Positions 4,371 to 24,054 of a DNA stretch of 24,054 nucleotides are shown here, in pieces. The notes under the pieces are model-generated. The model worked only from the letters and a program-made list of their open reading frames with translations. It was not told the origin of the DNA and ran no database searches. The stretch's first letter is position 1, and each line of letters begins with the position of its first letter. The position numbers and the translations under genes were made by a program. This stretch comes from Oligoflexus sp. (lineage in GTDB: Bacteria; Bdellovibrionota_B; Oligoflexia; Oligoflexales; Oligoflexaceae): NCBI GenBank assembly GCA_041736305.1, contig JBGSTX010000357.1, forward strand, positions 1-24,054. Direction: 5' to 3'.

Positions 4371-6887
4371 TCAGCTTCGCGGTTTTAAACCCGCAGATGG
4401 CACGTAGTTTAGGGGATCATCTGGCCAGGCATGCTTGGGGTAACGCCTTTTCAATTCCTTTTTTACCTCCTGGTAGCTCCCCTGCCAAAAACCTCGTAGA
4501 TCCTGTGTGATCTGGGCTGGCCTTCGACTCGGAGCCAAGAGTTTGATGAGCAGCGGCTGGCGCCCGCGGCATATCCTGGGGGTATCGATCTGACCAAAAA
4601 ACTCTTGGATTCGCGCCTCGATCCAGGGCTCACCTTCGTCTTCATAATGGATTTTCAGTTGTCGTCCGTTTTGCAGGAGGACAGTGTCGGGGCACAATTC
4701 ACGGAGGTGGACCAGATCGCTATAGTCGAGCTGATCTTCTATGGCTTGACGCAGATCTTTCGCATGCACTTCACTCAGAGAATGAGCTCCTTCACAGAGG
4801 TGAAGGATAAGCAGTTCGAGATAATCCCCTGCAAACTGTGGCATATTGTGCTCGACCTTGTTCCGGTCGAGTATCGCCAGCTTGTGGTGATAGGCTCGTA
4901 GTTCGGATACATTCTGGATAGAATCTGGCCAACGTTCGCTCACAACTGCCGCCAGATGCGCGCTCAATTCTCCGCCATCCGCTTGCTCGACGCTTTCACT
5001 GATGAGCAGCTTCCCGTAGAGCTCCTGTTTAATTTTTCTAACGCGTCCCGATTTTTCATCAAAACTAATTTCAAGGGTTTGCCGACGCAGTTCGAAAGGA
5101 TCAAGCTCGAGCCAGCTTGGGTCGATGGCCGTTGAAGTTTCGATGCGGGTTCGCTCTTGAGGGTCGGCACTGAGAGTTTCACGCGCATCGACGGCGACCA
5201 ACCACTCACTCTCGCGCACGATCGACCGTTCACCCAGTACGCCGCCGCGTCCCTGGCAAAAGTTGAAGTGCCGTAGACCACGTCCGCCTCTCTCGGCCAT
5301 GGGTCTGAATTTAGCGATACGATCAGCGAAAGCCAGGAAGATAGCTCGCCGCACCATGAGCTCGTCGAAACTTGATCCAAGAGACGACCAGGATGGCAAA
5401 CGCAGGCCCGGTCGCAGCGAATCATAAAGCTGCCGGATCCGCTGCGACTTATTTCGATCGAGGAGCGGGCTGCCTTGCAGAAGGAGTCCTAACTGATAGC
5501 AGACATCGCAAAGACCCTGCTCCCTTCGCCATTCATCTCGCCGCAAGACACCCTCTTCGTTGATGAGCAGCGCAGCCAAGAGACAGATGGCACCTTGTCC
5601 TTCCCTCTTTCCGGCGAGTACGAGTCGCGCCAAGCGAGGGTGCAGGGGTAGGCCGGCCATTTCCTTAGCGTCTGGACACAAGTTTCCACTGGAATCGAAG
5701 GCCTCCAAGTGTTCGAGCAGTTCCCGACTTTGCTTGATATGCAGATCTTCCGGTGACTCAAACCAGGGGAGTTCCTCCCAAGCCCTGGGAACTCCGGAAA
5801 AAATAACCTGGATCTCAAGCAGCATTTGCGAAAGGTCAATCCGTTGAATCTCGGGTTTGGTGAAGAGCGGCCGACTATTAAATTCGCTTTGGCTGTAAAG
5901 TCGATAGCAAACCCCGGGAGCGACGCGGCCAGCGCGCCCCGCTCTCTGAATCGCCGAAGCCTGACTTATGCGTTGACGTTCGAGAGTTGGTAGACCACTC
6001 CAGGGAGCATATCCAGAAATCTTGGCCCAACCCGTATCGATGACACCCTCGACCCTAGGCAAAGTCACCGAAGTCTCGGCGACGTTAGTTGAGAGTATTA
6101 GTTTGCGACGTCCTTCATCCCGAAAAAGTCGATCGTACTGACCCGCTAGCTCAGCCGTGAGGGGAACGATATCGATCGCGCTACTCAGAGTTCGCTCGAG
6201 GCGCTCGCGGCAGCTGTAGATTTCGCTCATGCCGCTCAAAAACACCAGTATGTTGCCTTTGCAGCGAGGGTCTTCCAGCATCTTATGGACAGCAACGGAC
6301 ACTTCGTCTTCTAGCTTCTGGTTCGGGCCACCCGGGTGGTATTCGACCACGATAGGAAAACTGCGACCCGGCACGTCAAAACTCGGCACCTCGCCTAGGT
6401 AGCTCTGGAGAGGTCCGAGTTCGAGGGTCGCCGACATCACCAGAACGCGCAGTTCTTTGCGTTGAAGAGAGATCGCCCGCAAAATCGCTAGCGCGAGATC
6501 GGTCTGCAGATGGCGCTCGTGAAACTCGTCGAGTATGACGAGATCGAATTCTTTGAGTTGTGGGTCCTGGAGCAATTTTCTGGTGAAGACCCCTTCTGTT
6601 ACGAAGAGCAAGCGGGTAGCAGCTGTCAGCTGCTTTTCAAGTCTGATTTGATAACCAACCAGCTGCCCCAAAGGCTCGCCACTCTGCGTGGCAACCCAGG
6701 AGGCAGCCAGGCGAGCCGCCAAGCGACGGGGTTGCACGACCAGAACTTTCTTAAAGTGTGTCAAAAGTGAGAGGGGCGCCCTCGTCGATTTTCCTGCTCC
6801 CGGCTCGGCCTTGAGGAGCACGAAGGGGGAAGCCTTGAGGGCCGCCGCAATCGCATCCAAGTATGGGTCGATGGGATATGTACTCAT
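4371..6887 (-). CDS. hrpB: ATP-dependent RNA helicase HrpB
   Basis: AEPGAGKST, DEFHER, MSAT, TNVAETSVT and QRAGRAGR motifs, plus the HrpB C-terminus (RPAQITQDLRGFW...RRYPKHAWPDDP). ATG 6887 with GAGG RBS preferred over TTG 6893. Confidence 0.95.
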   Translation of the reverse strand: MSTYPIDPYLDAIAAALKASPFVLLKAEPGAGKSTRAPLSLLTHFKKVLVVQPRRLAARLAASWVATQSGEPLGQLVGYQIRLEKQLTAATRLLFVTEGVFTRKLLQDPQLKEFDLVILDEFHERHLQTDLALAILRAISLQRKELRVLVMSATLELGPLQSYLGEVPSFDVPGRSFPIVVEYHPGGPNQKLEDEVSVAVHKMLEDPRCKGNILVFLSGMSEIYSCRERLERTLSSAIDIVPLTAELAGQYDRLFRDEGRRKLILSTNVAETSVTLPRVEGVIDTGWAKISGYAPWSGLPTLERQRISQASAIQRAGRAGRVAPGVCYRLYSQSEFNSRPLFTKPEIQRIDLSQMLLEIQVIFSGVPRAWEELPWFESPEDLHIKQSRELLEHLEAFDSSGNLCPDAKEMAGLPLHPRLARLVLAGKREGQGAICLLAALLINEEGVLRRDEWRREQGLCDVCYQLGLLLQGSPLLDRNKSQRIRQLYDSLRPGLRLPSWSSLGSSFDELMVRRAIFLAFADRIAKFRPMAERGGRGLRHFNFCQGRGGVLGERSIVRESEWLVAVDARETLSADPQERTRIETSTAIDPSWLELDPFELRRQTLEISFDEKSGRVRKIKQELYGKLLISESVEQADGGELSAHLAAVVSERWPDSIQNVSELRAYHHKLAILDRNKVEHNMPQFAGDYLELLILHLCEGAHSLSEVHAKDLRQAIEDQLDYSDLVHLRELCPDTVLLQNGRQLKIHYEDEGEPWIEARIQEFFGQIDTPRICRGRQPLLIKLLAPSRRPAQITQDLRGFWQGSYQEVKKELKRRYPKHAWPDDPLNYVPSAGLKPRS

Positions 6888-6997: not shown

Positions 6998-7948
6998 ATG
7001 GAACGACACAAAATTCAGGTCAGCTATAGACTCAACGGCATGCGTCTCGATCACGCGATTGCTGACTCCATTCCTGGAATGTCAAAAAGGCGCGCAAAAG
7101 CGATCATTGACCTTGGCGGCGCTTACCTAAATACGAAGAGAATTCGTGTCGCCTCGCGGACTGTGGGGAAAGGCGATCACATTGAAATTGAATACAATCC
7201 CAAGCTCTTCGAACCTGAGACTAAAGCTAAGCTAACCCTCGATGCAGCCTCTATACTCTTTCAAGATAAAAATCTCATCGTCATCAATAAACCTGCAGGC
7301 CTTCCTTCTCAATCCACGCGCGATCAGGCTGTACTGCATGTGATTCCTCTCCTGCAAAAGCTCTTAGACGAGATGGGCGAGGCACGTTCGGATCTACAGT
7401 TGGTTCATCGCCTCGACAAAGACACGACGGGTTGCCTCATCGTGGCTAAGAACAGCGAAACGATGACTTTTCTCACCGAACAGTTTCGCGAGAAATCTTT
7501 GCAGAAAACCTATCATGCGCTCTGCTGGGGCTTAACTCCCGAAGCTTTCGAAGAGACCTGCTACCTAAGTTCGATCCAAGGCCATAGCGGACAGGTAAAA
7601 GTCATGAAACGAGCTGGCAAGTTCTCCCAGACCCGTTTTCAGCTCATCCAGAGTTTTCCTTCCTTGCAGGTCTCTTGGGTGAAATGTCAGCCTATCACGG
7701 GACGCAGTCACCAGATTCGCGTTCATCTCGAGAAAAACGGCTTTCCTATCATTGGCGATAAAGTCTACGGGCAAGGTAAACAGCTTTTGCTCAACGAATC
7801 CTTGCAGGGCTTGGTTTCTCATCAGCTTTTGCACGCGGCCAGCATCACCTTTTCGCTGCCTGGCGAAGCCGAGCCTCTTACTGTAGAAGCTCCACATCCA
7901 GCAAGTTTTGCGGATTTCCTCAAAGAAGCGCAGAAGAGCCTCAGTTGA
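6998..7948 (+). CDS. RluA/RluD-family pseudouridine synthase with S4 domain
   Basis: N-terminal S4 (GMRLDHAI), INKPAG, catalytic VHRLDKDTTG, TGRSHQIRVH, PIIGDKVYG and LHA motifs. Confidence 0.95.
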   Translation: MERHKIQVSYRLNGMRLDHAIADSIPGMSKRRAKAIIDLGGAYLNTKRIRVASRTVGKGDHIEIEYNPKLFEPETKAKLTLDAASILFQDKNLIVINKPAGLPSQSTRDQAVLHVIPLLQKLLDEMGEARSDLQLVHRLDKDTTGCLIVAKNSETMTFLTEQFREKSLQKTYHALCWGLTPEAFEETCYLSSIQGHSGQVKVMKRAGKFSQTRFQLIQSFPSLQVSWVKCQPITGRSHQIRVHLEKNGFPIIGDKVYGQGKQLLLNESLQGLVSHQLLHAASITFSLPGEAEPLTVEAPHPASFADFLKEAQKSLS

Positions 7949-8152
7949 GAGCTGATCCTGTCGACTAGTTTCTGTTGCCGTACGTAATTTTGAGATAGCT
8001 TGAATTACTTGGTATCTTTTCAGAACAAACTCATTGAGTCCCTGATTTTCTTAAGAAATCGGAGAGTATCTGCCATTTTTCTTCCCTGCGCGCTATAGTG
8101 CGCTTCTAGAGTGTCGCTCAGAAGCCACCTCAGTTGATAAGGAGCACGGCTC

Positions 8153-9448
8153 ATGCTCATCGATATCCCAGAATTCTCTCTGGTTCTTTTGATTGGTCCT
8201 TCTGGAGCAGGTCAAATGAGCTTTATCGAGCGACATGTGCCTGTATCTGCCCTCATCACTGCAGAAAGCGCTTTGGAGCAAAGTCTCAGTGTGCAGGCCA
8301 AAGTGAAAACTGTCGGCATTGCCAGAGATCATGTACACCATCTCCTCACTCAAACTTCCCAGCGTCTGAAAGCTCGTCTCAAAACTGTAATCGATGCGAG
8401 TGGCTTCGAGGCCGATGCACGAAAGTCATTTGTTGATTTGGCTCGGCGCTATCATGCTCGCCTGGTAGCCATCGCCTTTGATGTGCCTAATGAAGGGATT
8501 GAGAATTCACGCAGTTCTGCGTCATTTTTAAGTCAGAAACGCAATCTGAACCATGAAGGATTTCATGAAATTTATACGCTGCGTTCCGAGCAGGATATTG
8601 CCAACGTTCATTTACGTTGGATCACCCCTCTCCACGACAAGCGTCAATTAACAGGGCCTTTTGACGTTATCGGCGATATCCATGGCTGCGCTGACGAGCT
8701 TGTCGATCTCTTGCATGCTCTCGGATATACCGTCGAAGAAAATGACGAGCAGGGACCTTCAGCTTGGCATCCTGAAGGGCGCATGATGGTGTTCGTCGGC
8801 GATATGGTGGATCGGGGTCCCGCCATCGTTAGAGTGCTTCAGCTGGTGATGAATTCGATAAAACGAGGCACGGCTCTCTGCGTCGTAGGAAATCATGAAA
8901 ACAAACTCGTCCGCTATCTGGCAGGCCGAAAGGTGAAGATCAGTCACGGTCTTGAGAAGACGATAGAACAGCTCGATCGGGCGCCAGCAACTCTCAAAAG
9001 CCAGCTGCCCATGTTTCTCAACAGCCTCAGCGATCACTTAATCCTCGACCAGGAACGTCTCGTCGTCGCTCATGCAGGAATTCGGGAAGATTTTATCGGC
9101 CGCAGCTCGGGAGAAATTCGCTCGTTCTGTCTCTACGGCGAAACCAATGGCGACCTCGATGAATACGGTCTGCCGGTTCGCTTACCCTGGGCTCGCAAGT
9201 ACGGCGGCGAGGCTTTGGTGGTTTATGGCCACACCCCTGTCCCAGAACCCCAGTGGGTCAGCAATACGGTAAATATAGATACAGGTTGTGTCTACGGAGG
9301 CGCCCTCAGCGCGCTTCGCTATCCAGAAAAGACCATTACCTCTGTGACGGCAAAGAAAACCTATTATGAGCCACGCCGTCCTTTTAAGGAGGAAGGCCGT
9401 CAAGGAAAGCGCCTGAATCACTTACGGAGAGAAGAGATTTCTTCCTAG
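8153..9448 (+). CDS. Pnkp-like protein: degenerate polynucleotide kinase domain plus metallophosphoesterase, no ligase domain
   Basis: N-terminus IPEFSLVLLIGPSGAG resembles bacterial Pnkp. Calcineurin-like motifs GDIHG, GDMVDRG, GNHE, HAG, YGHTP and IDTGCVYGG are intact. AAGGAG RBS. Confidence 0.85.
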   Translation: MLIDIPEFSLVLLIGPSGAGQMSFIERHVPVSALITAESALEQSLSVQAKVKTVGIARDHVHHLLTQTSQRLKARLKTVIDASGFEADARKSFVDLARRYHARLVAIAFDVPNEGIENSRSSASFLSQKRNLNHEGFHEIYTLRSEQDIANVHLRWITPLHDKRQLTGPFDVIGDIHGCADELVDLLHALGYTVEENDEQGPSAWHPEGRMMVFVGDMVDRGPAIVRVLQLVMNSIKRGTALCVVGNHENKLVRYLAGRKVKISHGLEKTIEQLDRAPATLKSQLPMFLNSLSDHLILDQERLVVAHAGIREDFIGRSSGEIRSFCLYGETNGDLDEYGLPVRLPWARKYGGEALVVYGHTPVPEPQWVSNTVNIDTGCVYGGALSALRYPEKTITSVTAKKTYYEPRRPFKEEGRQGKRLNHLRREEISS

Positions 9449-11790: not shown

Positions 11791-12689
11791 AGCTGGCTCA
11801 GCTATGCATTGAGATCTTGCTGCTCGCGCTGCGCCTGCTCCCTTGGAGCTGGCTTGATCCCCTCAGCCGTACCTTGGGAAAAATAGCCCCCAGACTGCTG
11901 AAGCGTGAAAAAAATTTGATAGCCGCCAACGTTGAAGCCGTCTTTGGACTGCGACCCCACAGCGGCTATGCACGGCGATTTCAGGAACAGGTCCTGCGAT
12001 CTCAGTTGATAGTCAGCCTTGAAACTTTCAAATCGGTACTCTGGTCGCAGGGAAATTTGCTAGTCGAAGGCATAGATCTCTTGCAGGAGCAGTTGCGAGA
12101 ACCTTTGGCCGCAGGCCAAGGGGTCATCATAGTTACTGCTCACTGCGGGAGCTGGGAGCTGGTAGCTCGTTCGGTAGCAATTGCGAGTTCACAGCGATTT
12201 TTCGCATTAGCGAAACCCTCGAAGTCGCGGGCATTCACCAGCGTCCTCGCTCGTCTTCGCAGCCACCTGAACACGGAAGTTCTCTGGATCGATAGTAAAA
12301 ATCTTTTGCGCGATATGATAAAGGTTTTGAAATCCGGACAACTTCTCGGCTTTGTTATGGACCAGAAACCCGAGGGGAGGGTCGGACCGCTGGTTAATTT
12401 TTTCGACCGGCCCACGGCCTTCGTTTCCGGTCCGGCAAAGCTTGCCATTCGCCATCAGAGCGCGGTGCTTGCTGTTTTCTGTATGCGGCAAGGTCCCGGC
12501 CGATATAAAATCGACTCGCAGCTCATCGCTCCGGCTCATCACGGGCTCAGCGATGAGCAAGCTTTGACCGAGGCGATGGCGCGGGCAATTGAAGCTTGCA
12601 TCCGGATCTATCCCGAACAATGGATATGGAATTACAAACGGTGGCGATTTCCTTCTCCCAGTCCAAATCCTCGATCGAGCGCTTATTAA
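11787..12689 (+). CDS. LpxL/HtrB-type lipid A biosynthesis (lysophospholipid) acyltransferase
   Basis: HxxxxE (HCGSWE), MDQ, FF and YPEQWIWNYKRW motifs, N-terminal hydrophobic helix. TTGA overlap with the lipA stop. Confidence 0.88.
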   Translation: MKLAQLCIEILLLALRLLPWSWLDPLSRTLGKIAPRLLKREKNLIAANVEAVFGLRPHSGYARRFQEQVLRSQLIVSLETFKSVLWSQGNLLVEGIDLLQEQLREPLAAGQGVIIVTAHCGSWELVARSVAIASSQRFFALAKPSKSRAFTSVLARLRSHLNTEVLWIDSKNLLRDMIKVLKSGQLLGFVMDQKPEGRVGPLVNFFDRPTAFVSGPAKLAIRHQSAVLAVFCMRQGPGRYKIDSQLIAPAHHGLSDEQALTEAMARAIEACIRIYPEQWIWNYKRWRFPSPSPNPRSSAY

Positions 12690-13366
12690 AGCGAAAGAGT
12701 CTTTTGCTGCGCCTGACTCCAAAGCACTTCTTCACCTTAGCGGAAGATCTACTTCTTATACTGGCCATCTCTACGGCTGATCCCGTCCAGAGGAGCCTAT
12801 GGGCGGGGGCGTCGTTTATCGTCGCAGGCTGGCTCTTAATTACGTGGATGCAAGGATTCAATCTCTCCGACCGCTCTTTTTCTATCATCGGCCCTTATCG
12901 CTTCGTACGCAGACCTCAGCGCTTGGCTATAACCTTGCTGGCTCTCGGCTTGAGTATAAGCGCTCGCTCCTTTCCGGCGCTGATTTTCAGTCTGTGTTTG
13001 CTGCCTTATTTCTACTGGGCCGAGCGTTTGGGTTTGAATCGACCGCAGACAGCAGGTGAGCTCGATTTACTTCGCTATCGTCAGCATGTGCCGGCTTTAG
13101 TTCCCACACTTTTCCCCTATATGCACACCCGCTCCCAAAGGGCGAAAATTCCTTTTTCATGGCGGCGTGCCCTCTTCCATTTTGAACCAAGAATAGCGCG
13201 CCTTTTTGTGAGCATACTAGCTGCCTGGCTCCTTTGCCTGCTGCTCGAATGGGTCTGGATCCCTTACTGGGGAGCAGTGGTCGTTTCGCTTTTGCCCCTA
13301 GTCTGGGACCTCGCTGCATTTTGTCGCCAAAGTATCGTCATTCGTAAAGCTCACCTCAGAAGTTGA
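12596..13366 (+). CDS. ICMT/PEMT-like (isoprenylcysteine/phospholipid methyltransferase family) membrane protein; true start possibly 12626 or TTG 12704
   Basis: Several hydrophobic helices, GPYRFVRRP (cf. GPYxxVRHP) and YRQHVPALVP (cf. YxxxVPRxxP). Confidence 0.6.
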   Translation: MHPDLSRTMDMELQTVAISFSQSKSSIERLLKRKSLLLRLTPKHFFTLAEDLLLILAISTADPVQRSLWAGASFIVAGWLLITWMQGFNLSDRSFSIIGPYRFVRRPQRLAITLLALGLSISARSFPALIFSLCLLPYFYWAERLGLNRPQTAGELDLLRYRQHVPALVPTLFPYMHTRSQRAKIPFSWRRALFHFEPRIARLFVSILAAWLLCLLLEWVWIPYWGAVVVSLLPLVWDLAAFCRQSIVIRKAHLRS

Positions 13367-16576: not shown

Positions 16577-16625
16577 CAGGCATAGACTCTACAGCGCCGC
16601 TGTGGATCTTCTTGGGAGGTACTCT

Positions 16626-18032
16626 ATGGCTAAGCATCTAGGAAGCTCAACTCGTACTCAACAGAAGAAGAAGCCTTCTCCTGTCTATCTTCAGGCTCTT
16701 CGCCACTTCTGGCGTGGAGAAAATGAAAGCGCTCTTGCAACTGTTGCCGATGCCTTGGCCGAAGGAAACGAAAACCAGACGGAACTATTTTACCGACTCT
16801 GGATAGAAGTCCTGGCTCAAGAAAACGACGAGGCTAGCCTGAGGATCCTCCAGGAGCACCTCAACCGTGAAATCGATTACAAGCATCCTAGCTGGATATC
16901 TTTCTATGCGCTCATCGGTCTCATACATTACGAGATAGGCGAGCTGGAAGCAGCTCAGATGGTGGTAAAGGCCAGCAGAAAGCACAGCGCTAATGCTTAT
17001 CTTAAAGAATTGCAGATCGTTCTCGATACTGAAGCCGATGACGAGCGCCTTATTCAGCAGAGTCGTGGCCTTGTTCGCCAAACGTCTGATTACTTACACT
17101 ATCGTCGATCCGCGCTTCTGGCCCACCGCGCCCAGAAGAAAACTACTCTTCGCAATCTATTCACTGCTATAGAAGAAACTTTTGGCACCGATCCTCTGGC
17201 CAACGAAATCGGTTTCCACGAGTCTTTTGCCAGCGGCAATTTTCATTTGGCATGGCAAAATGCGCGCAAGCTGCGCGATGATTTCCCTATGCATGCTGAC
17301 TTTCAGTTTTATTATGCGTATGCGTCCTTCAAGACCGAGAGAAATCAGCTTGCTCTCGAACAATTCATGCAACTGAATCGTCGCTTTAAGGCAGAAGACC
17401 CTGACGTCTTGTCGATGATTTGCGCTTCGTTGCTAGCTTCTAGTGCTGAGCATCGCGATAAAAGCCAGAGTATAGAGATTCGTCAGTATCTGAAACGCAC
17501 AGTGCAGCGTCTGTCAGCCATGGGTTTGTCTGCGGCTTATCCCCTTGACATTTTGCAGCGTTTTGAAGGAAGCGACAATACTCAAGCAGGTCGCATGTGG
17601 CTCCTTACATTGAGTGCTCGCCAAAGTGTCGAACTCTACGAGCGTCCTCTAGAACGCATTGATATCCTCCATCGTGCCTTGGGCGAGCATGTGGCAAAGA
17701 ATGACATCTGCTTCTTCATCTCGCAGGGTAGCCAGGATGGAGTCCGATCGCCGGATTCTTATCGTCTCATCGCCATTTATCGGGCTGTTTCTCAACCGCA
17801 GTGGCATCCTCTGCATCGTTGGTTTACGGCTCTCAAGCTGCAGATTCGTATGGAAGTTGGCATTCCTTTTACTTGGCAAGCCAAGCCCCACTCGAGCACC
17901 CATCGCTATGGCCTTCAAGAGCTGGACCATGAAACTCTTGCTTTCATCGAAGACAGCATTCGGAATTTCACTTTAGAAGATCGCGTGTACAGTCATATAG
18001 TTGCCGACCTCAAGACGGCAGGGTCCTTATAA
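16626..18032 (+). CDS. helical/TPR-like protein with possible C-terminal EVE (PUA-like) domain
   Basis: GGGAGGT RBS before ATG 16626. TPR-like segments (FYALIGLIHYEIG, FQFYYAYASF) and a beta-rich C-terminal ~130 aa. Confidence 0.7.
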   Translation: MAKHLGSSTRTQQKKKPSPVYLQALRHFWRGENESALATVADALAEGNENQTELFYRLWIEVLAQENDEASLRILQEHLNREIDYKHPSWISFYALIGLIHYEIGELEAAQMVVKASRKHSANAYLKELQIVLDTEADDERLIQQSRGLVRQTSDYLHYRRSALLAHRAQKKTTLRNLFTAIEETFGTDPLANEIGFHESFASGNFHLAWQNARKLRDDFPMHADFQFYYAYASFKTERNQLALEQFMQLNRRFKAEDPDVLSMICASLLASSAEHRDKSQSIEIRQYLKRTVQRLSAMGLSAAYPLDILQRFEGSDNTQAGRMWLLTLSARQSVELYERPLERIDILHRALGEHVAKNDICFFISQGSQDGVRSPDSYRLIAIYRAVSQPQWHPLHRWFTALKLQIRMEVGIPFTWQAKPHSSTHRYGLQELDHETLAFIEDSIRNFTLEDRVYSHIVADLKTAGSL

Positions 18033-18046
18033 GGGGGGGAATCCTC

Positions 18047-19810
18047 ATGTTTCGCATCGTCATAATTCTTTGCCTTTGGGCTGTAACCCCTTCGTCGCTC
18101 GCGCAGAGTGTGCCGCCTCCGCCACGTCCATCGACCCCAACGCAAGGGCCGGACGGAAGGATAGAAATTCCCGAAACTGGCTTCAGCATGCTGCCGCCAC
18201 CGAATTGGGAAATCCTTCGCAACAGTCACGGGTCGACTCTTCTCTTCCGTGGTCCAAAGGAAGGGGGCGATATCAAGTACCAGTCCACGGTACAGGTGAT
18301 GGTATTCCAGGGCTATCGCTATATCGACGAAGTCACCCAGCAGGAATTTGGCAAGCTGATTGTCGAAAAGTTCGGTGGTGCTTCCAATCAGGTGCAGGAC
18401 TATCGGCTCCGCAGTGCTGAGCAGATTAAGCTTGAAACCGGGGATGAATCGATACTTTTTTACACAGAGTTCACCTTCAACTCGATACCCATTATGCAGA
18501 TGCACATTCTGGTGTCTTCGGCTACTCACCATTTTCTGATGACCTATACTGATCTTGCCAGTTCATTCGAAGAAGACAACAGTAAGGGCTTGATGACGGC
18601 CTATACTTCAATGCATTCGGCGGTTCTAAGCAGCCATCCGCCTTCACGCTATAACTTCATGATTTTAGGCGGCGCCAGTGTCGGAGCCTTGCTCCTCATT
18701 TGGTTTGGTTTTCGTTTTTTCCGAAACTATCAGATGGCTCGACTGGGTGAGCGGATAGAGGAGGAAGAAAATCGCGAAATCCAATCGGATCAGGAAACGG
18801 AATATTACAGCCGTCACACCCCGCTTTCCGAAGCCAATGCTATAGAAGATGATGAGGACGATGTATCGCCGCGTCGCAAGAAGGCCAAAGAAAAGCCTGC
18901 GAAAAAGGTTTCTATGGCTCCGCCGCGCCGGACCGAAGAAGTAGATGACGAAGATCGTGAGCAAGACGGCCGCCAGATGACTGACAGTCATGTCCACTCG
19001 GAGCTCGAACCTTTGAGTGATATGAAGAGCCATATGGCCTCTGAGATAAGCCACATCTTCCCGGAACCAATGGTCTTGACGCCTCACAACGCTGATGCCG
19101 AACGCCGGCAATTGGCGAGTACGGTTCCTCCGATTTTTCCTCCAGAGCATCAATCCTCGTTTGCTCCGCCACCGGTAGTGCCAAATTGGAAGCACGGTGA
19201 GGAGTCGACTCGCGCGACGCAACCGCCCCTCCCACCACCGGGTCCTTCTCTATCGAAGACGGTACCACCCATGGTTGCGGAAGCGACTCGTGTAACAGTG
19301 CCTCCAAGCGTTCCACAGAATCTTCGGAAGACTGTTCCCCCTATGAATCCGCTTGATCTTGAAATTCCAACTCAGCATTCAGAGGTCGCTAAACTCTCAG
19401 ACATTCTTCCGCAGGACGGCACCGAAGACGGTAAAAAGGGCAAGAAGAAGGGATTTTGGAGCAAGAAAAAGGACAGGGACGAAGATGAGTCGGAGCAGAT
19501 GGAAGATGACGAGGTCGCTCCGGTTTCCTCAGTATGGGCAGTAGAAGGCGATAATCAAGCTCCGAGCGAGGACTTTGATGTTCAAGAGCCAAAGCCCAAG
19601 GGCCGGTCCAAAAAGCCAGCTACCCAGGTGGCGAAAGAAGAAGTTGCCGTGAAAGAAAAGGCGAAGGCTAAGGATAAGAAAAAGGCCAAGAAGGAAGAGC
19701 AGCCCGAATCGATTCATGCTGAGGAAGATGCAGGGGAAGCAGACGGCTGGAATTTAGCTGAGGAAGGCCAACCAGCGAAGAATCTAGATGATGATGAGGA
19801 AGTCAGCTAA
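18047..19810 (+). CDS. single-pass membrane protein: signal peptide, exported domain (PsbP/DcrB-like by eye), TM helix, long low-complexity tail
   Basis: Signal MFRIVIILCLWAVTPSSLA, GFSMLPPPNWE, TM FMILGGASVGALLLIWFGF, then ~360 aa of E/D-, K- and P-rich sequence. AAGGGGGG RBS, 14 nt after the upstream stop. Confidence 0.75.
   Translation: MFRIVIILCLWAVTPSSLAQSVPPPPRPSTPTQGPDGRIEIPETGFSMLPPPNWEILRNSHGSTLLFRGPKEGGDIKYQSTVQVMVFQGYRYIDEVTQQEFGKLIVEKFGGASNQVQDYRLRSAEQIKLETGDESILFYTEFTFNSIPIMQMHILVSSATHHFLMTYTDLASSFEEDNSKGLMTAYTSMHSAVLSSHPPSRYNFMILGGASVGALLLIWFGFRFFRNYQMARLGERIEEEENREIQSDQETEYYSRHTPLSEANAIEDDEDDVSPRRKKAKEKPAKKVSMAPPRRTEEVDDEDREQDGRQMTDSHVHSELEPLSDMKSHMASEISHIFPEPMVLTPHNADAERRQLASTVPPIFPPEHQSSFAPPPVVPNWKHGEESTRATQPPLPPPGPSLSKTVPPMVAEATRVTVPPSVPQNLRKTVPPMNPLDLEIPTQHSEVAKLSDILPQDGTEDGKKGKKKGFWSKKKDRDEDESEQMEDDEVAPVSSVWAVEGDNQAPSEDFDVQEPKPKGRSKKPATQVAKEEVAVKEKAKAKDKKKAKKEEQPESIHAEEDAGEADGWNLAEEGQPAKNLDDDEEVS
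19121..19342 (+). repeat. protein-level TVPP repeats
   Basis: TVPP encoded at 19121, 19259, 19295 and 19331 (last three exactly 36 nt apart), TQPP at 19217. Codons differ between copies. Confidence 0.75.
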
Positions 19811-19875: not shown

Positions 19876-19940
19876 GCTATTTGCCAATTTCTTTCCTATT
19901 GTGCCTCCGCCAGAGATGTAGCGCGCGAGGAGTTTGTAAT

Positions 19941-21002
19941 ATGTTCACCGCCATGAATTTCACAGGTGATAGCCTACGCTTGATCGATCAGCGTCGATTG
20001 CCGCACGAGGAAATCTGGATTGAAGGCCAGGACCTCGAAACTGTGGCTCAGGCCATAGAAAATATGACTGTGCGTGGTGCGCCTGCGATTGCAACAGCTG
20101 CTCTTTATGCTTTGGTTTTAGACGCCAAAAATGCCAGTTTCCGCACTTGGGCGGATTACCGGGCTAGATTCTTCCAAGGTTGTCAGCGCCTTCAGGCGAC
20201 CCGCCCCACGGCTGTGAATCTCTTCAATGCTTTAAATGCGGTTCGTCAAGCGGCAGACACCTGGTCATCTGAGCTGCCAAAGGCTGAGCTTTTGCCTCTT
20301 ATCACGGCGGCGGCTCAGGCCTTGGAAAAGAGCGATCTTGAGACCTGTCGAGCCATAGGCGAGCACGGGGCAAGTTTGGCCAGCTCTGCGGGCTCAATGA
20401 GGGTCCTCACGCACTGCAACACCGGCTCTTTGGCGACGGCGGGTTATGGAACAGCTTTGGGGGTGATTCGTTCGCTCTACACGCAGGGTAAGCTCGAGCA
20501 TGTTTATGTCGACGAGACGAGGCCATATCTCCAGGGATCTCGTTTGACTGCCTTTGAGTTGCAGTCGGAGGGTATTCCTTACAGTATCCAGACTGACTCA
20601 GCCGCGGCTTATTTGATGCGTTACGAGCGGGTGGATATGGTTGTGGTGGGGGCGGATCGTATTGCTGCGAATGGTGATACGGCGAATAAGGTGGGGACTT
20701 ATTCTTTGGCGATAGTTGCTCAGTATCACGGTGTGCCTTTTTATGTCGCAGCGCCACGTAGTACCTTTGATCCGTTGATTCCTGATGGTCGTTCGATACC
20801 GATTGAGATGCGTCCTCCTCAGGAGATTACGGAGCATGGTGGTCATCCGATTGCTCCGCGTCAGGCTCAGGCGAAGAATCCTTCTTTCGATGTGACGCCG
20901 GCGTCATTAATAAGCGGTTTAATAACGGAGTATGGAATTATAAGGGCTCCTTTCGGGGAGGGCATTCAGGAGCTTTTGAGAAAGGGATGTCAGAGGAGTT
21001 GA
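19941..21002 (+). CDS. mtnA: S-methyl-5-thioribose-1-phosphate isomerase
   Basis: IDQRRLP, VRGAPAI, RPTAVNL, LTHCNTGSLAT, DETRPYLQGSRLT, GADRIAANGDTANKVGTY and NPSFDVTP motifs. GAGGAG RBS before ATG 19941. Confidence 0.97.
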   Translation: MFTAMNFTGDSLRLIDQRRLPHEEIWIEGQDLETVAQAIENMTVRGAPAIATAALYALVLDAKNASFRTWADYRARFFQGCQRLQATRPTAVNLFNALNAVRQAADTWSSELPKAELLPLITAAAQALEKSDLETCRAIGEHGASLASSAGSMRVLTHCNTGSLATAGYGTALGVIRSLYTQGKLEHVYVDETRPYLQGSRLTAFELQSEGIPYSIQTDSAAAYLMRYERVDMVVVGADRIAANGDTANKVGTYSLAIVAQYHGVPFYVAAPRSTFDPLIPDGRSIPIEMRPPQEITEHGGHPIAPRQAQAKNPSFDVTPASLISGLITEYGIIRAPFGEGIQELLRKGCQRS

Positions 21003-21027
21003 CAGCGCAAATTATTTTTGCGATAAG
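20999..21027 (+). promoter_or_regulatory. putative sigma70 promoter of tRNA-Val
   Basis: Perfect TTGACA overlapping the mtnA stop, N17, then GATAAG preceded by TGn, 12 nt before the tRNA. Confidence 0.55.
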
Positions 21028-21039
21028 CATTGCACTCGT

Positions 21040-21116
21040 GGGGGTTTAGCTCAGTTGGTTAGAGCATTAGCCTTACAAGCTAAGGGTCGCGAGTTCGAAT
21101 CTCTCAACCCCCACCA
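21040..21116 (+). tRNA. tRNA-Val (anticodon TAC)
   Basis: Cloverleaf: GGGGGTT/AACCCCC acceptor, GCTC/GAGC D-stem, TTAGC-CT TAC AA-GCTAA anticodon arm, TTCGAAT T-loop, discriminator A and encoded CCA. Confidence 0.97.
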
Positions 21117-21237
21117 GATTTTTTCCCAAAAAAAATCCCTCCATTATCTCTCAGCTATCAACAAAAGCTTTAAGCCACTAAATGTCGAATACCAAAGTAG
21201 CCCAATTGGAGCGAACTCTCACAAAGTGGAGATGCCA

Positions 21238-21435
21238 GTGCCTTCTGTTTTAACTCAAGCCAAGAGACACGTGCGTATCACGAGAAACCTCAAGCTGAGT
21301 GCAACGCGCAAACTATTCATCATGCTTTCGATAGTAGGTTTGGTTCTCTACACGATGTTTTTCTCCACAATGCCGGCTGTTCATGATTATTTCCACGAGC
21401 TCAGGCACGGTCTCATGATGATACCTTGTCACTAA
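21238..21435 (+). CDS. cbtB: CbtB-like small membrane protein (putative cobalt/metal transporter subunit)
   Basis: One TM helix followed by VHDYFHELRHGLMMIPCH-stop, matching the CbtB H-x3-H-[DE]-x-R-H-x5-P-C-H C-terminus. GGAG lies 6 nt before GTG 21238 (ATG 21232 alternative). The longer ORF overlaps the tRNA. Confidence 0.75.
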   Translation: MPSVLTQAKRHVRITRNLKLSATRKLFIMLSIVGLVLYTMFFSTMPAVHDYFHELRHGLMMIPCH

Positions 21436-21448
21436 AAAGGGACCGCTT

Positions 21449-22495
21449 GTGCGCAGTTTAGCAATATTCCTCATCACGCTCACGAGTCTACTAGGCGCGA
21501 GTATCAGTTTTTCTGCCCCAATTATAAGTTTCCATAGCGAGCAGGACCTAACAAACGTCCGGCCACGTCACGACAAAGTAAGCATCTCGCTTGACCTCCC
21601 CAAAAGCAATAAAGCAGGCATTAAAAGTTTAAGGGTAAAGCTGCTAGCCCCTCCCAGTCAGATTTTCTTTTCCACGGACTTTCCAGCGGTAGAGGGAAGC
21701 ACCCTCTTTGACTCAGTAATTTCTTTCGAAGAGGGATCCTTCAAGTTTTCGTTTGTGCCGCCGATCCGGGGTGAATATCGTCTTGAGGTGATTCCGGTAC
21801 CAGTGAATCAAGGCTCTTTGCAAAAAGAGGAGTGGCGCTTCAAGATACAGGAGGACCCCAGCAGGGTGACGAACCTAGGCTTCTTCCTCCTGATTCTCGG
21901 ACTCGTATGTGGTCTGAGTGCTTACGTGATTGGTGCGGCTGAGGGGAAAAAGGCGAATCTTCTAGCTCAAGCGTCGGTCTTAGTTTTCCTCATATTAGCG
22001 TCACCGCTTATAGCGCATGAGCAACATAGTCCCCACAAGATCTCCAAAGAGAATATGCAAGCAGAAGGCAGCGATGGTCTCAAGCTCGACCTCCGCCTCT
22101 CAAGCGAGCAGCCTCGAGTAGGCGAGACGGCTGAACTGAGGGGTACCCTTCTCGATGCCAACAATCAGCTTATCCCGGCCCGCTTCCATCTGACTTTCAT
22201 GCAGATGGAGCACGACTTAGAGGTGTTCTCGACGGACCTTCTCAGTAGCGAAGGTCAATTCAGCTGGAACGGACAGTTTGTCGATGGTTCTCCCCATCGG
22301 GTTGAGGTAGAAGCCTTCCCGACTAACGAAAAATTAAAGCCTATAAAGGCTTCATTTGAGGTTGGGGTTCAAGCCGTGCCACCTCCACTTGCTGCAACGG
22401 GAAAATCTTTCTCCTCCCTTATGCTTTTTGCGGCATTGGCGATGCTTTCAGGATTTTTTTTAGGTCATTACAAGCAGAGTAGAATCAAAGTTTGA
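21449..22495 (+). CDS. uncharacterised membrane protein with two exported beta-rich domains and His/Met motifs
   Basis: Signal-like N-terminus, two central hydrophobic helices, AHEQHSPH, MQMEHD, DGSPH and a C-terminal TM. AAGGGA RBS, 13 nt after the cbtB-like stop. Confidence 0.75.
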   Translation: MRSLAIFLITLTSLLGASISFSAPIISFHSEQDLTNVRPRHDKVSISLDLPKSNKAGIKSLRVKLLAPPSQIFFSTDFPAVEGSTLFDSVISFEEGSFKFSFVPPIRGEYRLEVIPVPVNQGSLQKEEWRFKIQEDPSRVTNLGFFLLILGLVCGLSAYVIGAAEGKKANLLAQASVLVFLILASPLIAHEQHSPHKISKENMQAEGSDGLKLDLRLSSEQPRVGETAELRGTLLDANNQLIPARFHLTFMQMEHDLEVFSTDLLSSEGQFSWNGQFVDGSPHRVEVEAFPTNEKLKPIKASFEVGVQAVPPPLAATGKSFSSLMLFAALAMLSGFFLGHYKQSRIKV

Positions 22496-23718
22496 GCCAA
22501 GAACCTTTTACAGAATCCCTCACGATTCCTCCAAGTCTTATCGACCAGATTATTGGGCAAGACAAGGCTGTGGGTATCGCTCGCATAGCTGCCCGGCAAC
22601 GCAGATTCATGTTTTTGGTCGGGGAGCCCGGCACAGGCAAGAGTCTCATCGGTCGAGCTTTTGCTGAACTCCTCCCAGCGCCTTCCGAATTCGTTGTGTC
22701 TTCAGTACCAAATCCTCTGAATCCAGTACGTCCTCTCATTCGTTGTGAAAGCAAAGAGGATTTTTGCAAGCGGCAAGAACGTCTTGCACAAAGCCAGAAA
22801 GCCGAGAGCTTATCAAACGCGTACTTGATCTACTTCGCGCTGGTATCAGGAGCGTTTATAGCCCTATGGCTGAGCTTTCGAGATCGAACGCTGGCCTATC
22901 TCCCCTTCTTTCTCTTAGCGGGTCTCTTCCTCTGGCAATGGCGTCGCTATTCGAAAACAAAGAAGATGAACCAAATAGCTCCAAAGATCTTACATATGGT
23001 TGAGGATCAGAGTCCATTTATTGATGCGACCGGATGCAGCGATGGAGCTCTTTTTGGGGACATACGGCATGACCCCTTTCAATCCGGAGGCTCGGAAACG
23101 GCTCCTCACCTCCTCGTTGAAGCGGGAGCTATCCACAAGGCTCATCGAGGGGTACTTTTTATTGACGAAATAGGCCAGCTAAGCCAGCGCTCGCAGAAGC
23201 TTCTTCTGAGTGCGATTCAGGACAAAAGCCTGCCTATAACAGGGCGCCAAAGCGGATCAAGTGGGCGAATGGTTTGCACCGAAGCTGTTCCTTGCGACTT
23301 CGTGCTCATTGCTTCCGGCAACATTGATGACCTATCCAAGCTTTCACCTGCATTGCGTTCTCGATTCATGGGATTCGGTTACGAAGTTCTGATGAAAAGC
23401 GAGATTCCAGATACCGTAGACAATCGAGAGGCTTTACTGCGATTCATAGCACAGGAAGTGCTCAAGGATGGGCGAATTCCCCACTTTTCCAGGTGCGCTG
23501 CAGATGAAGTTATTGCGGAAGCGAGCCGCCGTGCAAAGCGTGAAGGATACCTTACAGCCCGTTTGCGAGAGCTAGGGGGACTTGTAAGGATTGCTGGAGA
23601 TCTAGCTGTGCACGCAGCAAAACCATTAGTAAGCAAGGAATTCGTCCTTGAGGCCTTGCGCTACACCGCTAGTATAGAAGAGCAGCAAAAACAAGAAAAC
23701 CAAAACACAATGTCCTGA
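22492..23718 (+). CDS. archaeal-type LonB AAA+ ATPase with two TM helices, lacking the protease domain
   Basis: IPPSLIDQIIGQ, Walker A GEPGTGKS, PNP, two TM helices, PFIDATG, GDIRHDPFQSGG, EAGAIHKAHRGVLFIDEI (Walker B), VPCDF, ALRSRF, QEVLKDGRIPHF and RLRELGGLVR. Ends shortly after SIEEQ. TTGA overlap with the upstream gene. Confidence 0.88.
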   Translation: MSQEPFTESLTIPPSLIDQIIGQDKAVGIARIAARQRRFMFLVGEPGTGKSLIGRAFAELLPAPSEFVVSSVPNPLNPVRPLIRCESKEDFCKRQERLAQSQKAESLSNAYLIYFALVSGAFIALWLSFRDRTLAYLPFFLLAGLFLWQWRRYSKTKKMNQIAPKILHMVEDQSPFIDATGCSDGALFGDIRHDPFQSGGSETAPHLLVEAGAIHKAHRGVLFIDEIGQLSQRSQKLLLSAIQDKSLPITGRQSGSSGRMVCTEAVPCDFVLIASGNIDDLSKLSPALRSRFMGFGYEVLMKSEIPDTVDNREALLRFIAQEVLKDGRIPHFSRCAADEVIAEASRRAKREGYLTARLRELGGLVRIAGDLAVHAAKPLVSKEFVLEALRYTASIEEQQKQENQNTMS

Positions 23719-23747
23719 ACCTTTTAAAGCAGATCTTTTTAATCAGT

Positions 23748-24053
23748 TTAAGGTTCTCCTAGCACCGGGAGTATCCAACCCGCAGCCGCTGCCTCTCGAA
23801 AGAATGAGGCGCTCTCGCTGCTAGTTAGATCCACATACTGATTGACGATTGCTCCATTGCTTTCAGGGGCCCCGACTGAAGTAATTCCAGCCAGAGTCCC
23901 TGAGCTCAAAAGCAGGGCTCCGCCCGAGTCACCAGGAGCAGCAGCTGCGTCACCAGAATTAGGCGAGTAAAATAGCTGTAGCGTACCGGCGCTTATCTGC
24001 TGAATCTTAGCCCGACCTAGGCGTTTGAGCCCTATACCGGCACCTGGAGTAGT
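23748..24053 (-). CDS. trypsin-like (S1) serine protease, C-terminal part (5' partial, not in the ORF track)
   Basis: Manual minus-strand translation ...GIGLKRLG...AAAPGDSGGALLLSSGTLAGITSVG...YVDLTS...GEP*. GDSGG catalytic Ser motif, TAA at 23750-23748. Confidence 0.8.
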   Translation of the reverse strand, partial: TTPGAGIGLKRLGRAKIQQISAGTLQLFYSPNSGDAAAAPGDSGGALLLSSGTLAGITSVGAPESNGAIVNQYVDLTSSESASFFREAAAAGWILPVLGEP

Positions 24054-24054
24054 C

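Follow-up and report, generated by a model that had tools for sequence, protein, structure and literature searches.

We examined a 24,054-nucleotide (nt) stretch of DNA from Oligoflexus sp. (assembly GCA_041736305.1, contig JBGSTX010000357.1; the whole stretch is referred to hereafter as the window, G+C ~50%), concentrating on a cassette of three plus-strand open reading frames (ORFs) that follow one another in a row: cbtB (21238–21435), a gene of unnamed family that we call gene 2 (21449–22495), and a gene for a LonB-type AAA+ ATPase (22492–23718). The spacing between cbtB and gene 2 is 13 nt (21436–21448), and the stop codon of gene 2 (TGA, 22493–22495) runs into the start codon of the ATPase gene (TTG, 22492–22494) to give a 4-nt overlap, TTGA. 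An initial annotation of this DNA had described three co-oriented genes with this gap and overlap, bounded by tRNA-Val and a convergent gene, and all of these elements are present. The cassette comprises the following features (aa, amino acids; coordinates are those of the window):

21238–21435, + strand: cbtB, encoding a 65-aa CbtB-family peptide (Pfam PF09489 CbtB)
21382–21432, + strand: C-terminal His/Cys motif of CbtB, putatively metal-binding (aa 49–65; invariant alignment columns)
21449–22495, + strand: gene 2, encoding a 348-aa CbtB partner of unnamed family (no Pfam or NCBIfam family; CbtB adjacent in 48/51 loci)
21527–21847, + strand: gene 2 β-sandwich domain 1 (aa 27–133), with signatures STDFPxVEG and PPIRGxY (AlphaFold2 strands)
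21857–21997, + strand: gene 2 helical hairpin (aa 137–163 and 166–183), then an AH(G/E)xxH loop (AlphaFold2 helices)
22052–22363, + strand: gene 2 β-sandwich domain 2 (aa 202–305), homologous to domain 1 (hhalign; fold search)
22388–22474, + strand: gene 2 C-terminal membrane helix (aa 314–342; AlphaFold2 helix)
22492–23718, + strand: LonB-type AAA+ ATPase, 408 aa, without protease domain (NCBIfam TIGR00764; 4zpx)
22621–22644, + strand: Walker A, GEPGTGKS (aa 44–51; from the translation, invariant among short relatives)
22819–22941, + strand: two hydrophobic helices between Walker A and Walker B (~aa 110–150), a LonB-type membrane anchor (from the translation; the 4zpx insertion is aligned)
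23059–23091, + strand: loop GDIRHDPFQSG with aromatic F196, a putative substrate-gripping pore loop (invariant columns; 4zpx)
23152–23169, + strand: Walker B, VLFIDE (aa 221–226; from the translation, D225 and E226 invariant)

The CbtB peptide, its unnamed partner and the ATPase

The small ORF had been proposed to encode a CbtB-like peptide, and its product does score above the gathering cut-off of the Pfam hidden Markov model PF09489 (32.1 versus 27 bits), with residues 32–65 covering profile positions 19–51 of 51. Its score against NCBIfam TIGR02459, a hypothetical equivalog model, lies below the cut-off (22.1 versus 64.4 bits), and the window CbtB is best classed as a divergent family member that is no equivalog by NCBI's rule. 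The peptide is laid out as a basic N-terminal tail (aa 1–25), one hydrophobic helix (~aa 26–42) and a C-terminal HDxxHxxRHx5PCH motif, of which H49, H53, R56, H57, C64 and H65 do not vary across 26 aligned sequences; the same C-terminal motif, with RH-to-PCH spacing one residue shorter, is found in 12 canonical Leptospirales CbtBs encoded beside CbtA. Translation from the GTG at 21238, which is preceded at 6 nt by GGAG, yields MPSVLTQ… (MPSVYTQ or MPTIYTQ in orthologues), and an in-frame ATG at 21232 provides an alternative start. Sequence searches of the PDB returned no relatives of either CbtB or gene 2.

Gene 2 was said to look unlike CbtA and to have two large soluble domains, a description that holds on both counts: hhalign gives a probability of 0.13% for a relation to CbtA, a CbtA match is found in 0/85 relatives (the candidate identity of gene 2 as CbtA is hence rejected), and an AlphaFold2 model (10-sequence alignment, predicted local distance difference test score 81.8, predicted template modeling (TM) score 0.74) contains two β-sandwiches. 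These follow an N-terminal helix, four helices in all are of membrane-spanning length, and the His-bearing loop is modeled at low confidence. The two halves of the protein are homologous (hhalign of half 1 against half 2: probability 97%, E 1.2e-10, 110 columns) and are encoded as two separate genes in many lineages; as judged from sequence, gene 2 is an internal duplication of a module composed of a periplasmic immunoglobulin (Ig)-like β-sandwich and a membrane anchor. Gene 2 itself matches no family in Pfam or NCBIfam, and its relatives (85 compared with Pfam, 26 with NCBIfam) match none beyond sporadic generic Ig-like hits; where the source gives a name, it is “hypothetical protein.” The family is nonetheless large, in that a profile search of 1.84 billion representatives yielded 395 representative clusters (E ≤ 1e-3), 156 of which pass E ≤ 1e-30 (a word-indexed protein search had returned only 5 relatives, which the profile search showed to be a limit of that method).

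Residues T76, D77, F78, P79, E82, P105, R107, G108 and Y110 each recur in 77 or more of 85 gene-2 sequences. The best-conserved polar positions are D77, E82, R107, Y110, E135, E254 and D279; H283 is His in 72/85 sequences and H190 in 55/85, so the emphasis that the initial annotation placed on histidines does not survive, the conserved polar residues being mainly Asp, Glu, Arg and Tyr. No hits other than generic Ig/macroglobulin-like domains came from a fold search with the whole model, and most of these aligned with domain 2 (Foldseek TM ≤ 0.25, best Z 8.6); the copper protein CrdA (Z 7.8 over 104 residues) ranks among them no better than many unrelated Ig-like domains. The matches to the model being generic, we draw no functional assignment from them. 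At one locus (L038), a gene-2 relative of far greater length (572 aa, 4764–6482) precedes a gene for a MerC-like membrane protein (6479–6859), a hint that the module may also serve other metals.

The third gene had been read as a LonB AAA+ protein without its protease, and the profile comparisons agree. Its product matches the LonB model TIGR00764 over positions 7–398 of 608 (E 3e-119; 399.3 bits, below the cut-off of 516.6) and ends at position 398, with no Lon_C (S16 protease) domain found in it by Pfam, NCBIfam or our own Lon_C profile. The Thermococcus Lon ATPase chain 4zpx aligns along its length, hydrophobic insertion included (E 4e-109), and identity to archaeal LonB is 47–49%. Walker A, Walker B and the RHDP(F/Y)QSG loop are invariant among 30 short relatives, and R192, H193, D194, P195, Q197, S198 and G199 of this loop, which we take to be a pore loop, are also identical in 4zpx. 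Given the invariance of the nucleotide-binding motifs and of the loop, together with the identity to archaeal LonB, the ATPase is probably active.

Lon_C is likewise absent from 11 of the 13 CbtB-linked ATPases, and the other two carry Asp or Glu at the column that presumably holds the catalytic Ser; to the extent that sequence is a guide, proteolysis is not a conserved function of the linked ATPases. A quick FastTree phylogeny of 138 AAA+ modules gathers the 64 Lon_C-bearing proteins into one clade (support 100), outside of which lie all 19 CbtB-linked ATPases and all short and N-terminally extended forms. At least 3 ordinary Lon_C-bearing genes are present elsewhere in the genome of the window. 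Models of ChlI and CobS align with the ATPase in partial stretches only (Mg_chelatase over residues 18–65; TIGR02030 at 30 bits versus 467), and we reject, for the genome of the window, the idea that it stands in for ChlI alongside a CobN chelatase, as no CobN was found there.

Conservation of the cassette and its cobalamin link

The same gene order recurs in 6 other Oligoflexus genomes and in four other phyla. Within the genus, the ATPase is present in 6 of 13 genomes, each time with cbtB and gene 2 in identical order, and at least 4 same-genus loci also have the 4-nt overlap between gene 2 and the ATPase gene. Neighborhood conservation across phyla, which the initial annotation had proposed as a check, was assessed from both ends of the cassette. 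Starting from gene 2, one peptide pattern (built on a narrower gene-2 alignment, wider alignments being too diverse for locus finding) yielded 51 loci (genomes of many phyla, one per species), a set of loci that is not an unbiased sample. By tblastn, a CbtB gene adjoins gene 2 in 48 of the 51, and the loci span Oligoflexia, Cyanobacteria, Leptospirales, Verrucomicrobiota, Chloroflexota, Bacillota, Binatia, Thermodesulfobacteriota, Planctomycetia and Legionellales. The ATPase accompanies 13 of them, from five phyla (4 Oligoflexaceae, 2 Leptospiraceae, 1 Opitutales, 2 Chloroflexota, 4 Bacillota). This count leads us to regard CbtB and gene 2 as the core and the ATPase as an accessory, and is at odds with the earlier view of the ATPase as a general part of the system (it lies within ~5 kb at those 13 loci only).

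Starting from the ATPase instead (ATPase alignment, E ≤ 1e-40, 1,435 genomes), holders were distributed as follows:

Bdellovibrionota (own phylum): 7/131 genomes
Chloroflexota: 5/301 genomes
Bacillota: 3/401 genomes
Verrucomicrobiota: 1/301 genomes
Spirochaetota: 1/301 genomes

All 17 of these holders, among them 4 non-seed genomes and 6 same-genus genomes, have cbtB and gene 2 beside the ATPase. The same alignment, run against metagenomes, provided a negative control. Among the best 80 LonB-like metagenome loci the ATPase ORF was readable in 72; CbtB and gene 2 accompany none of the ORFs of 601–1155 aa or the one of 512 aa (71 of the former length class and the 512-aa ORF being counted separately from the short form), both accompany the only short ATPase (438 aa), and CbtB is found at one of the 8 loci in which no ATPase ORF could be read. 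That the adjacency arose by chance, or that the ATPase is part of some other, unrelated system, phage defence for instance (LonB-like ATPases do occur in some defence systems), is in our view extremely improbable, given an order conserved in five phyla and the linkage of every ATPase holder to the cassette; PADLOC, run on the three proteins, identified no defence system and aligned only a 40-residue generic AAA stretch with RtcR models.

The ATPase-bearing systems take two forms. One, found in Oligoflexus, Leptospiraceae and Opitutales, combines a short, HEAT-less ATPase with a CbtB whose tail retains the motif YTQA(K/R)RHLRITR; the other, found in Chloroflexota and Bacillota, has an ATPase with a fused or adjacent HEAT-like domain (above the Pfam cut-off only for the separate protein at L053) together with different CbtB tails. 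These other tails weaken the candidacy of the CbtB N-tail as a marker of all ATPase-linked systems. In the Opitutales locus (L020), one TAA lies within the ATPase match of the genome search, and the ATPase is followed by a ChlD-like protein with AAA lid and VWA domain (607 aa, 7371–9194) and by a tetrapyrrole methylase. Among 81 Leptospirales genomes, CbtA is present in 13, and both gene-2 carriers are without it.

The connection to cobalamin is made by the relatives. Of the 50 gene-2 loci scanned (L059 was left out), 16 are immediately preceded by a co-oriented cobalamin riboswitch (RF00174 or RF01482); they include 3 Oligoflexus loci and 4 ATPase-carrying Bacillota loci. Another 3 loci of the genus are cut off within the riboswitch and retain its 3′ part. 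The Leptospiraceae cassette has CbiA (cobyrinate diamide synthase) on one side and CbiX-2Fe2S, DUF3209 and a flavin reductase on the other, and neighbors of gene 2 elsewhere include CobN, CobW, Fur with CbiM, tetrapyrrole methylases and CbiX. In Leptospira licerasiae, canonical cbtBA adjoins the cob operon, 3′ of a cobalamin riboswitch (PMC3493377, PMC4758666). The genome of the window encodes CbiC and a tandem CbiX; CbtA (PF09490), CbiM, NicO and CobN were not found in it, at a completeness of 92.7%. Its tandem CbiX is a 398-aa frame on a separate short contig, of the same length class as the CbiX-2Fe2S fusions of Leptospirales. In the ATPase-holding cob operons of that order, DUF3209, an uncharacterized, cobalamin-linked family, follows CbiX-2Fe2S directly (L018, 8336–8704; L161, 9192–9563).

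The initial annotation had left the metal as Co, Ni or Cu; the upstream cobalamin riboswitches of relatives, and the placement of others inside cob operons, narrow this to cobalt for cobalamin as the most likely metal. We regard it as very unlikely that the module instead handles a corrinoid or another metal (Ni, Zn, Cu). Corrinoid transporters are also under B12 riboswitch control, and the module is immediately preceded by a gene for a TonB-dependent receptor in L016 and by an OprB porin gene in L020, with an ABC exporter-type gene in the vicinity of 9 loci; for a different metal one could cite the CrdA match and the SCO1 genes near L016 and L056. Against these stand the His/Cys motif of CbtB and the placement among cobalt-chelatase genes, both pointing to a metal ion, the generic character of the CrdA match, and the positions of SCO1, which occurs near 2 loci only (convergent in L016, 0.5 kb past the ATPase stop in L056).

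The exporter-type gene is a fusion of ABC_membrane and ABC_tran (~580 aa) located ~1–3 kb upstream of cbtB and upstream of the riboswitch–cbtB–gene 2 unit (L017, L019, L021, L024, L026, L033, L038, L050 and L055, some of them non-cyanobacterial); it might encode another carrier connected with cobalt or corrinoids. At cyanobacterial loci L017, L019, L021, L026 and L035, a gene for a DsbD_2 and Ferric_reduct fusion (~400 aa) lies convergently, directly after gene 2, together with one for a 250-aa protein that matches no family.

The surroundings of the window's own cassette are set by three features:

21040–21116, + strand: tRNA-Val(tac), upstream boundary, outside the module (ARAGORN; Rfam tRNA 71.7 bits)
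21117–21237, + strand: 121-nt leader between tRNA-Val and cbtB (no cobalamin riboswitch, no significant structure)
23748–24053, − strand: convergent trypsin-like serine protease gene, C-terminal (3′) part only, downstream boundary (Pfam Trypsin PF00089, 31.2 bits; runs off the window)

No sigma-70-like sites were found in 20900–24054, no significant fold in the leader (21117–21240, z-score −0.67), and terminator-like sites near the cassette are no more frequent than in shuffled sequence. The trypsin-like gene is not conserved with the module, other Oligoflexus loci having different neighbors there (Hsp90, SCO1). Upstream of tRNA-Val lies mtnA (19881–21002), preceded by a 587-aa protein without Pfam family (18047–19810), with a signal peptide, one hydrophobic helix and more than half of its sequence of Pro/Glu/Lys/Asp-rich low complexity. 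Two further ORFs have no Pfam match (12596–13366, 256 aa; 16602–18032, 476 aa), and the remaining genes of the window are housekeeping (MetRS, HrpB-like helicase, lipoyl synthase, lipid A acyltransferase, TPR protein, PilZ protein).

Proposed function of the cassette and role of the ATPase

CbtB with gene 2 is most likely, on comparative grounds, a self-contained and widespread alternative to CbtAB for cobalt entry. That the whole cassette is a CbtB module linked to cobalt or cobalamin, with a dedicated ATPase accessory, we hold with good confidence; that it acquires cobalt in the service of cobalamin synthesis, with this AAA+ accessory, is the reading that we favor, at somewhat better than even odds. 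For the ATPase, a positive (energizing or assembling) role is preferred on account of the retained motor motifs, the lost proteolysis and co-expression with the carrier, but as a tentative proposal that may well prove wrong.

The mechanism that we envisage, for which we infer the substrate (cobalt), the direction (import), the topology, the physical contacts and the action of the ATPase, would run as follows. CbtB would be a single-pass membrane peptide with its basic N-tail facing the cytoplasm and its C-terminal HDxxHxxRHx5PCH motif binding metal. Gene 2, in the place of CbtA, would use its conserved Asp, Glu and His residues to capture Co2+ outside and would hand it over to CbtB, to be carried through the inner membrane. 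The ATPase would form a membrane-anchored, LonB-derived ring that has lost proteolysis, has kept ATP binding and putative gripping loops, and is made together with the products of cbtB and gene 2. Acting on cytoplasmic parts, most likely the CbtB tail, it could drive, assemble or reset the carrier, thereby coupling uptake to ATP.

Several observations weigh against this proposal. Beyond the bias of the pattern-derived loci, no ATPase lies within ~5 kb in 38 of the 51 (several of which end at contig edges), and in five such genomes searched whole the ATPase was found elsewhere in 2 and not at all in 3; the carrier would thus work without the ATPase in most lineages. Membrane helices are few for a transporter (three in gene 2 after removal of the signal peptide, one in CbtB), and the best-conserved polar residues of gene 2 are carboxylates, not histidines. 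The window, moreover, has no cobalamin riboswitch, either at gathering score or at E ≤ 10 (Rfam, with the tRNA as the only match), and its genome has only two sub-threshold RF00174 matches, both elsewhere. The initial annotation had remarked on this missing riboswitch, correctly for the window but not for the system, in which riboswitches recur among the related loci (16/50). In three Oligoflexus loci (L013, L014 and L015), a ~190-nt cobalamin riboswitch occupies the interval between tRNA-Gly and cbtB, the counterpart in the window being tRNA-Val and 121 nt with none; the window copy has apparently escaped B12 control or is otherwise regulated.

A further objection comes from the Leptospirales genome G835, where the ATPase gene is part of the cob operon and overlaps CbiX, cbtB and gene 2 being 10 kb distant, a placement that a role at the chelatase step fits at least as well. 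The ATPase might then serve cobalt insertion, passing cobalt from CbtB to CbiX or remodeling a chelatase or a tetrapyrrole-binding HEAT domain in the manner of ChlI or CobS. Its gene directly precedes CbiX-2Fe2S in two Leptospiraceae loci (L018 and L058), a tetrapyrrole methylase and CbiX in Lihuaxuella, and the ChlD-like AAA+VWA protein in Opitutales, and HEAT-like repeats are fused or adjacent to it in Chloroflexota and Bacillota. We nevertheless judge this role unlikely: the Oligoflexus cassette lies away from CbiX, which is on another contig; no CobN was found in the genome of the window; the ATPase co-occurs with cbtB and gene 2 in every genome examined and with no single chelatase type; and its similarity to ChlI is confined to generic P-loop stretches.

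Descent from a membrane protease raises another prospect, namely that the ATPase acts as a brake or in quality control, extracting or unfolding CbtB or the gene-2 protein so as to stop influx or clear a damaged carrier, with the product passed to FtsH or Lon. Two relatives retain a Lon_C-like domain, and the several full Lon_C genes of the genome (at least 3) could complete degradation. A need for such control can be argued from Methylococcus, in which 1 µM cobalt is toxic and cbtB knock-down relieves the toxicity, improving growth in 1 µM CoCl2 (PMC13108547); the same result is indirect support for canonical CbtAB as a cobalt importer. On the other side, the protease part is lost or without catalytic Ser in 13/13 linked ATPases, and the ATPase gene overlaps the carrier gene, is co-transcribed with it and, in relatives, is subject to the same B12 off-switch. 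A brake made only alongside the carrier and at equal dose would be an odd design, and we think it improbable that the ATPase is one.

Returning to the positive role that we prefer for the ATPase, one version of it can be spelled out, which we advance as distinctly unlikely: the LonB-derived ring would grip the basic cytoplasmic tail of CbtB and pull on it at the expense of ATP, dragging the metal-loaded C-terminal His/Cys peptide through or out of the membrane, with cobalt released beside the chelatase. One hint is the tail motif YTQA(K/R)RHLRITR kept by the HEAT-less ATPase systems. Two loci in which the CbtB alignment reaches residue 3 or 7, and which have no nearby ATPase, both belong to genomes with an ATPase elsewhere (2/2), and three genomes in which CbtB aligns only from residue 21–25 have none (0/3). 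These are further hints in favor of such a shuttle, to be read with the knowledge that both loci were interpreted as long-tailed after being chosen and that the alignment extends almost to the same point for some cyanobacterial CbtBs that lack an ATPase locus. If true, peptide-shuttle import would be a primary-active principle unlike that of ABC, ECF or P-type systems, built from a protease-less protease. Taken overall, the initial interpretation, a metal uptake, export or loading complex energized or remodeled by a repurposed Lon motor, is partly supported.

Relation to known systems and significance

To our knowledge, cobalt acquisition in most B12-producing bacteria is known only from gene-neighborhood predictions, and we are aware of neither a structure nor a mechanism for CbtAB. 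The original CbtAB prediction was reportedly made by Rodionov and co-workers in 2003, in a paper said to have named both CbtAB and CbtC–G. In another source, CbtAB (PF09489 CbtB with PF09490 CbtA) is listed as a candidate cobalt transporter (PMC2667541). The cassette shares with CbtAB the CbtB peptide with C-terminal HDxxHxxRH…PCH, an organization as two cistrons, which in related loci, though not in the window, may follow a cobalamin riboswitch or adjoin cob genes, and occurrence in B12 producers without other cobalt carriers. It differs in its partner, a duplicated periplasmic β-sandwich and anchor protein in place of CbtA; in the RH–PCH spacing of its CbtB, one residue longer; and in the AAA+ ATPase that a subset of cassettes possess, none being found within 1.5 kb of canonical CbtAB in 12/12 loci.

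Like archaeal membrane-bound LonB (TIGR00764; Thermococcus onnurineus 4zpx, 3k1j), the cassette ATPase has two membrane helices between Walker A and Walker B and the RHDPFQSGG loop. Unlike it, the cassette ATPase is bacterial, ends after the AAA+ lid without an S16 protease domain, and is tied to cbtB and gene 2, lying outside the canonical clade and below the equivalog cut-off. AAA+ motors of metal-cofactor insertion include ChlI/ChlD and CobS/CobT of the class I chelatases as well as MoxR–VWA pairs. As with ChlI and CobS, the ATPase is encoded with metal and tetrapyrrole genes (at L020 the ChlD-like AAA+VWA gene is next to it), whereas in contrast to ChlI and MoxR it is of Lon lineage and membrane-anchored, and has no VWA partner in the cassette of the window.

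Membrane-tethered periplasmic Ig-like metal chaperones are exemplified by Cox11 and CopC. CrdA (9ll2) resembles gene 2 in having a β-sandwich that a helix tethers to the membrane, acidic and His residues and a metal context; it has no sequence relation to gene 2, which has two sandwich domains and four helices and for which complement/macroglobulin matches score higher (Z 8.6).

The initial annotation knew of no characterized system of this composition, and the literature that we searched agrees: we found in it no description of CbtB with LonB or of a cobalamin riboswitch with a Lon-like protein and cobalt (CbtC–G of 2003 were not compared with gene 2), and nothing that combines four of cobalt, AAA+, LonB-like, HEAT repeat and cobalamin biosynthesis or that treats Oligoflexus and cobalamin.

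These results define a second, widespread CbtB-based module, whose partner family is nameless in Pfam and NCBIfam and whose loci come from some ten phyla, many of them riboswitch-linked. They also define a bacterial clade of LonB-derived, non-proteolytic ATPases that travels with the module in every case examined. If the link between the two is functional, it would provide a function for proteins currently labeled “ATP-binding protein” or “AAA family ATPase,” offer a tractable example of a protease that has become a pure motor, and improve the genome-based prediction of cobalt supply and B12 production. Oligoflexus tunisiensis, which is cultured and carries a riboswitch-controlled version of the module, makes the idea directly testable.

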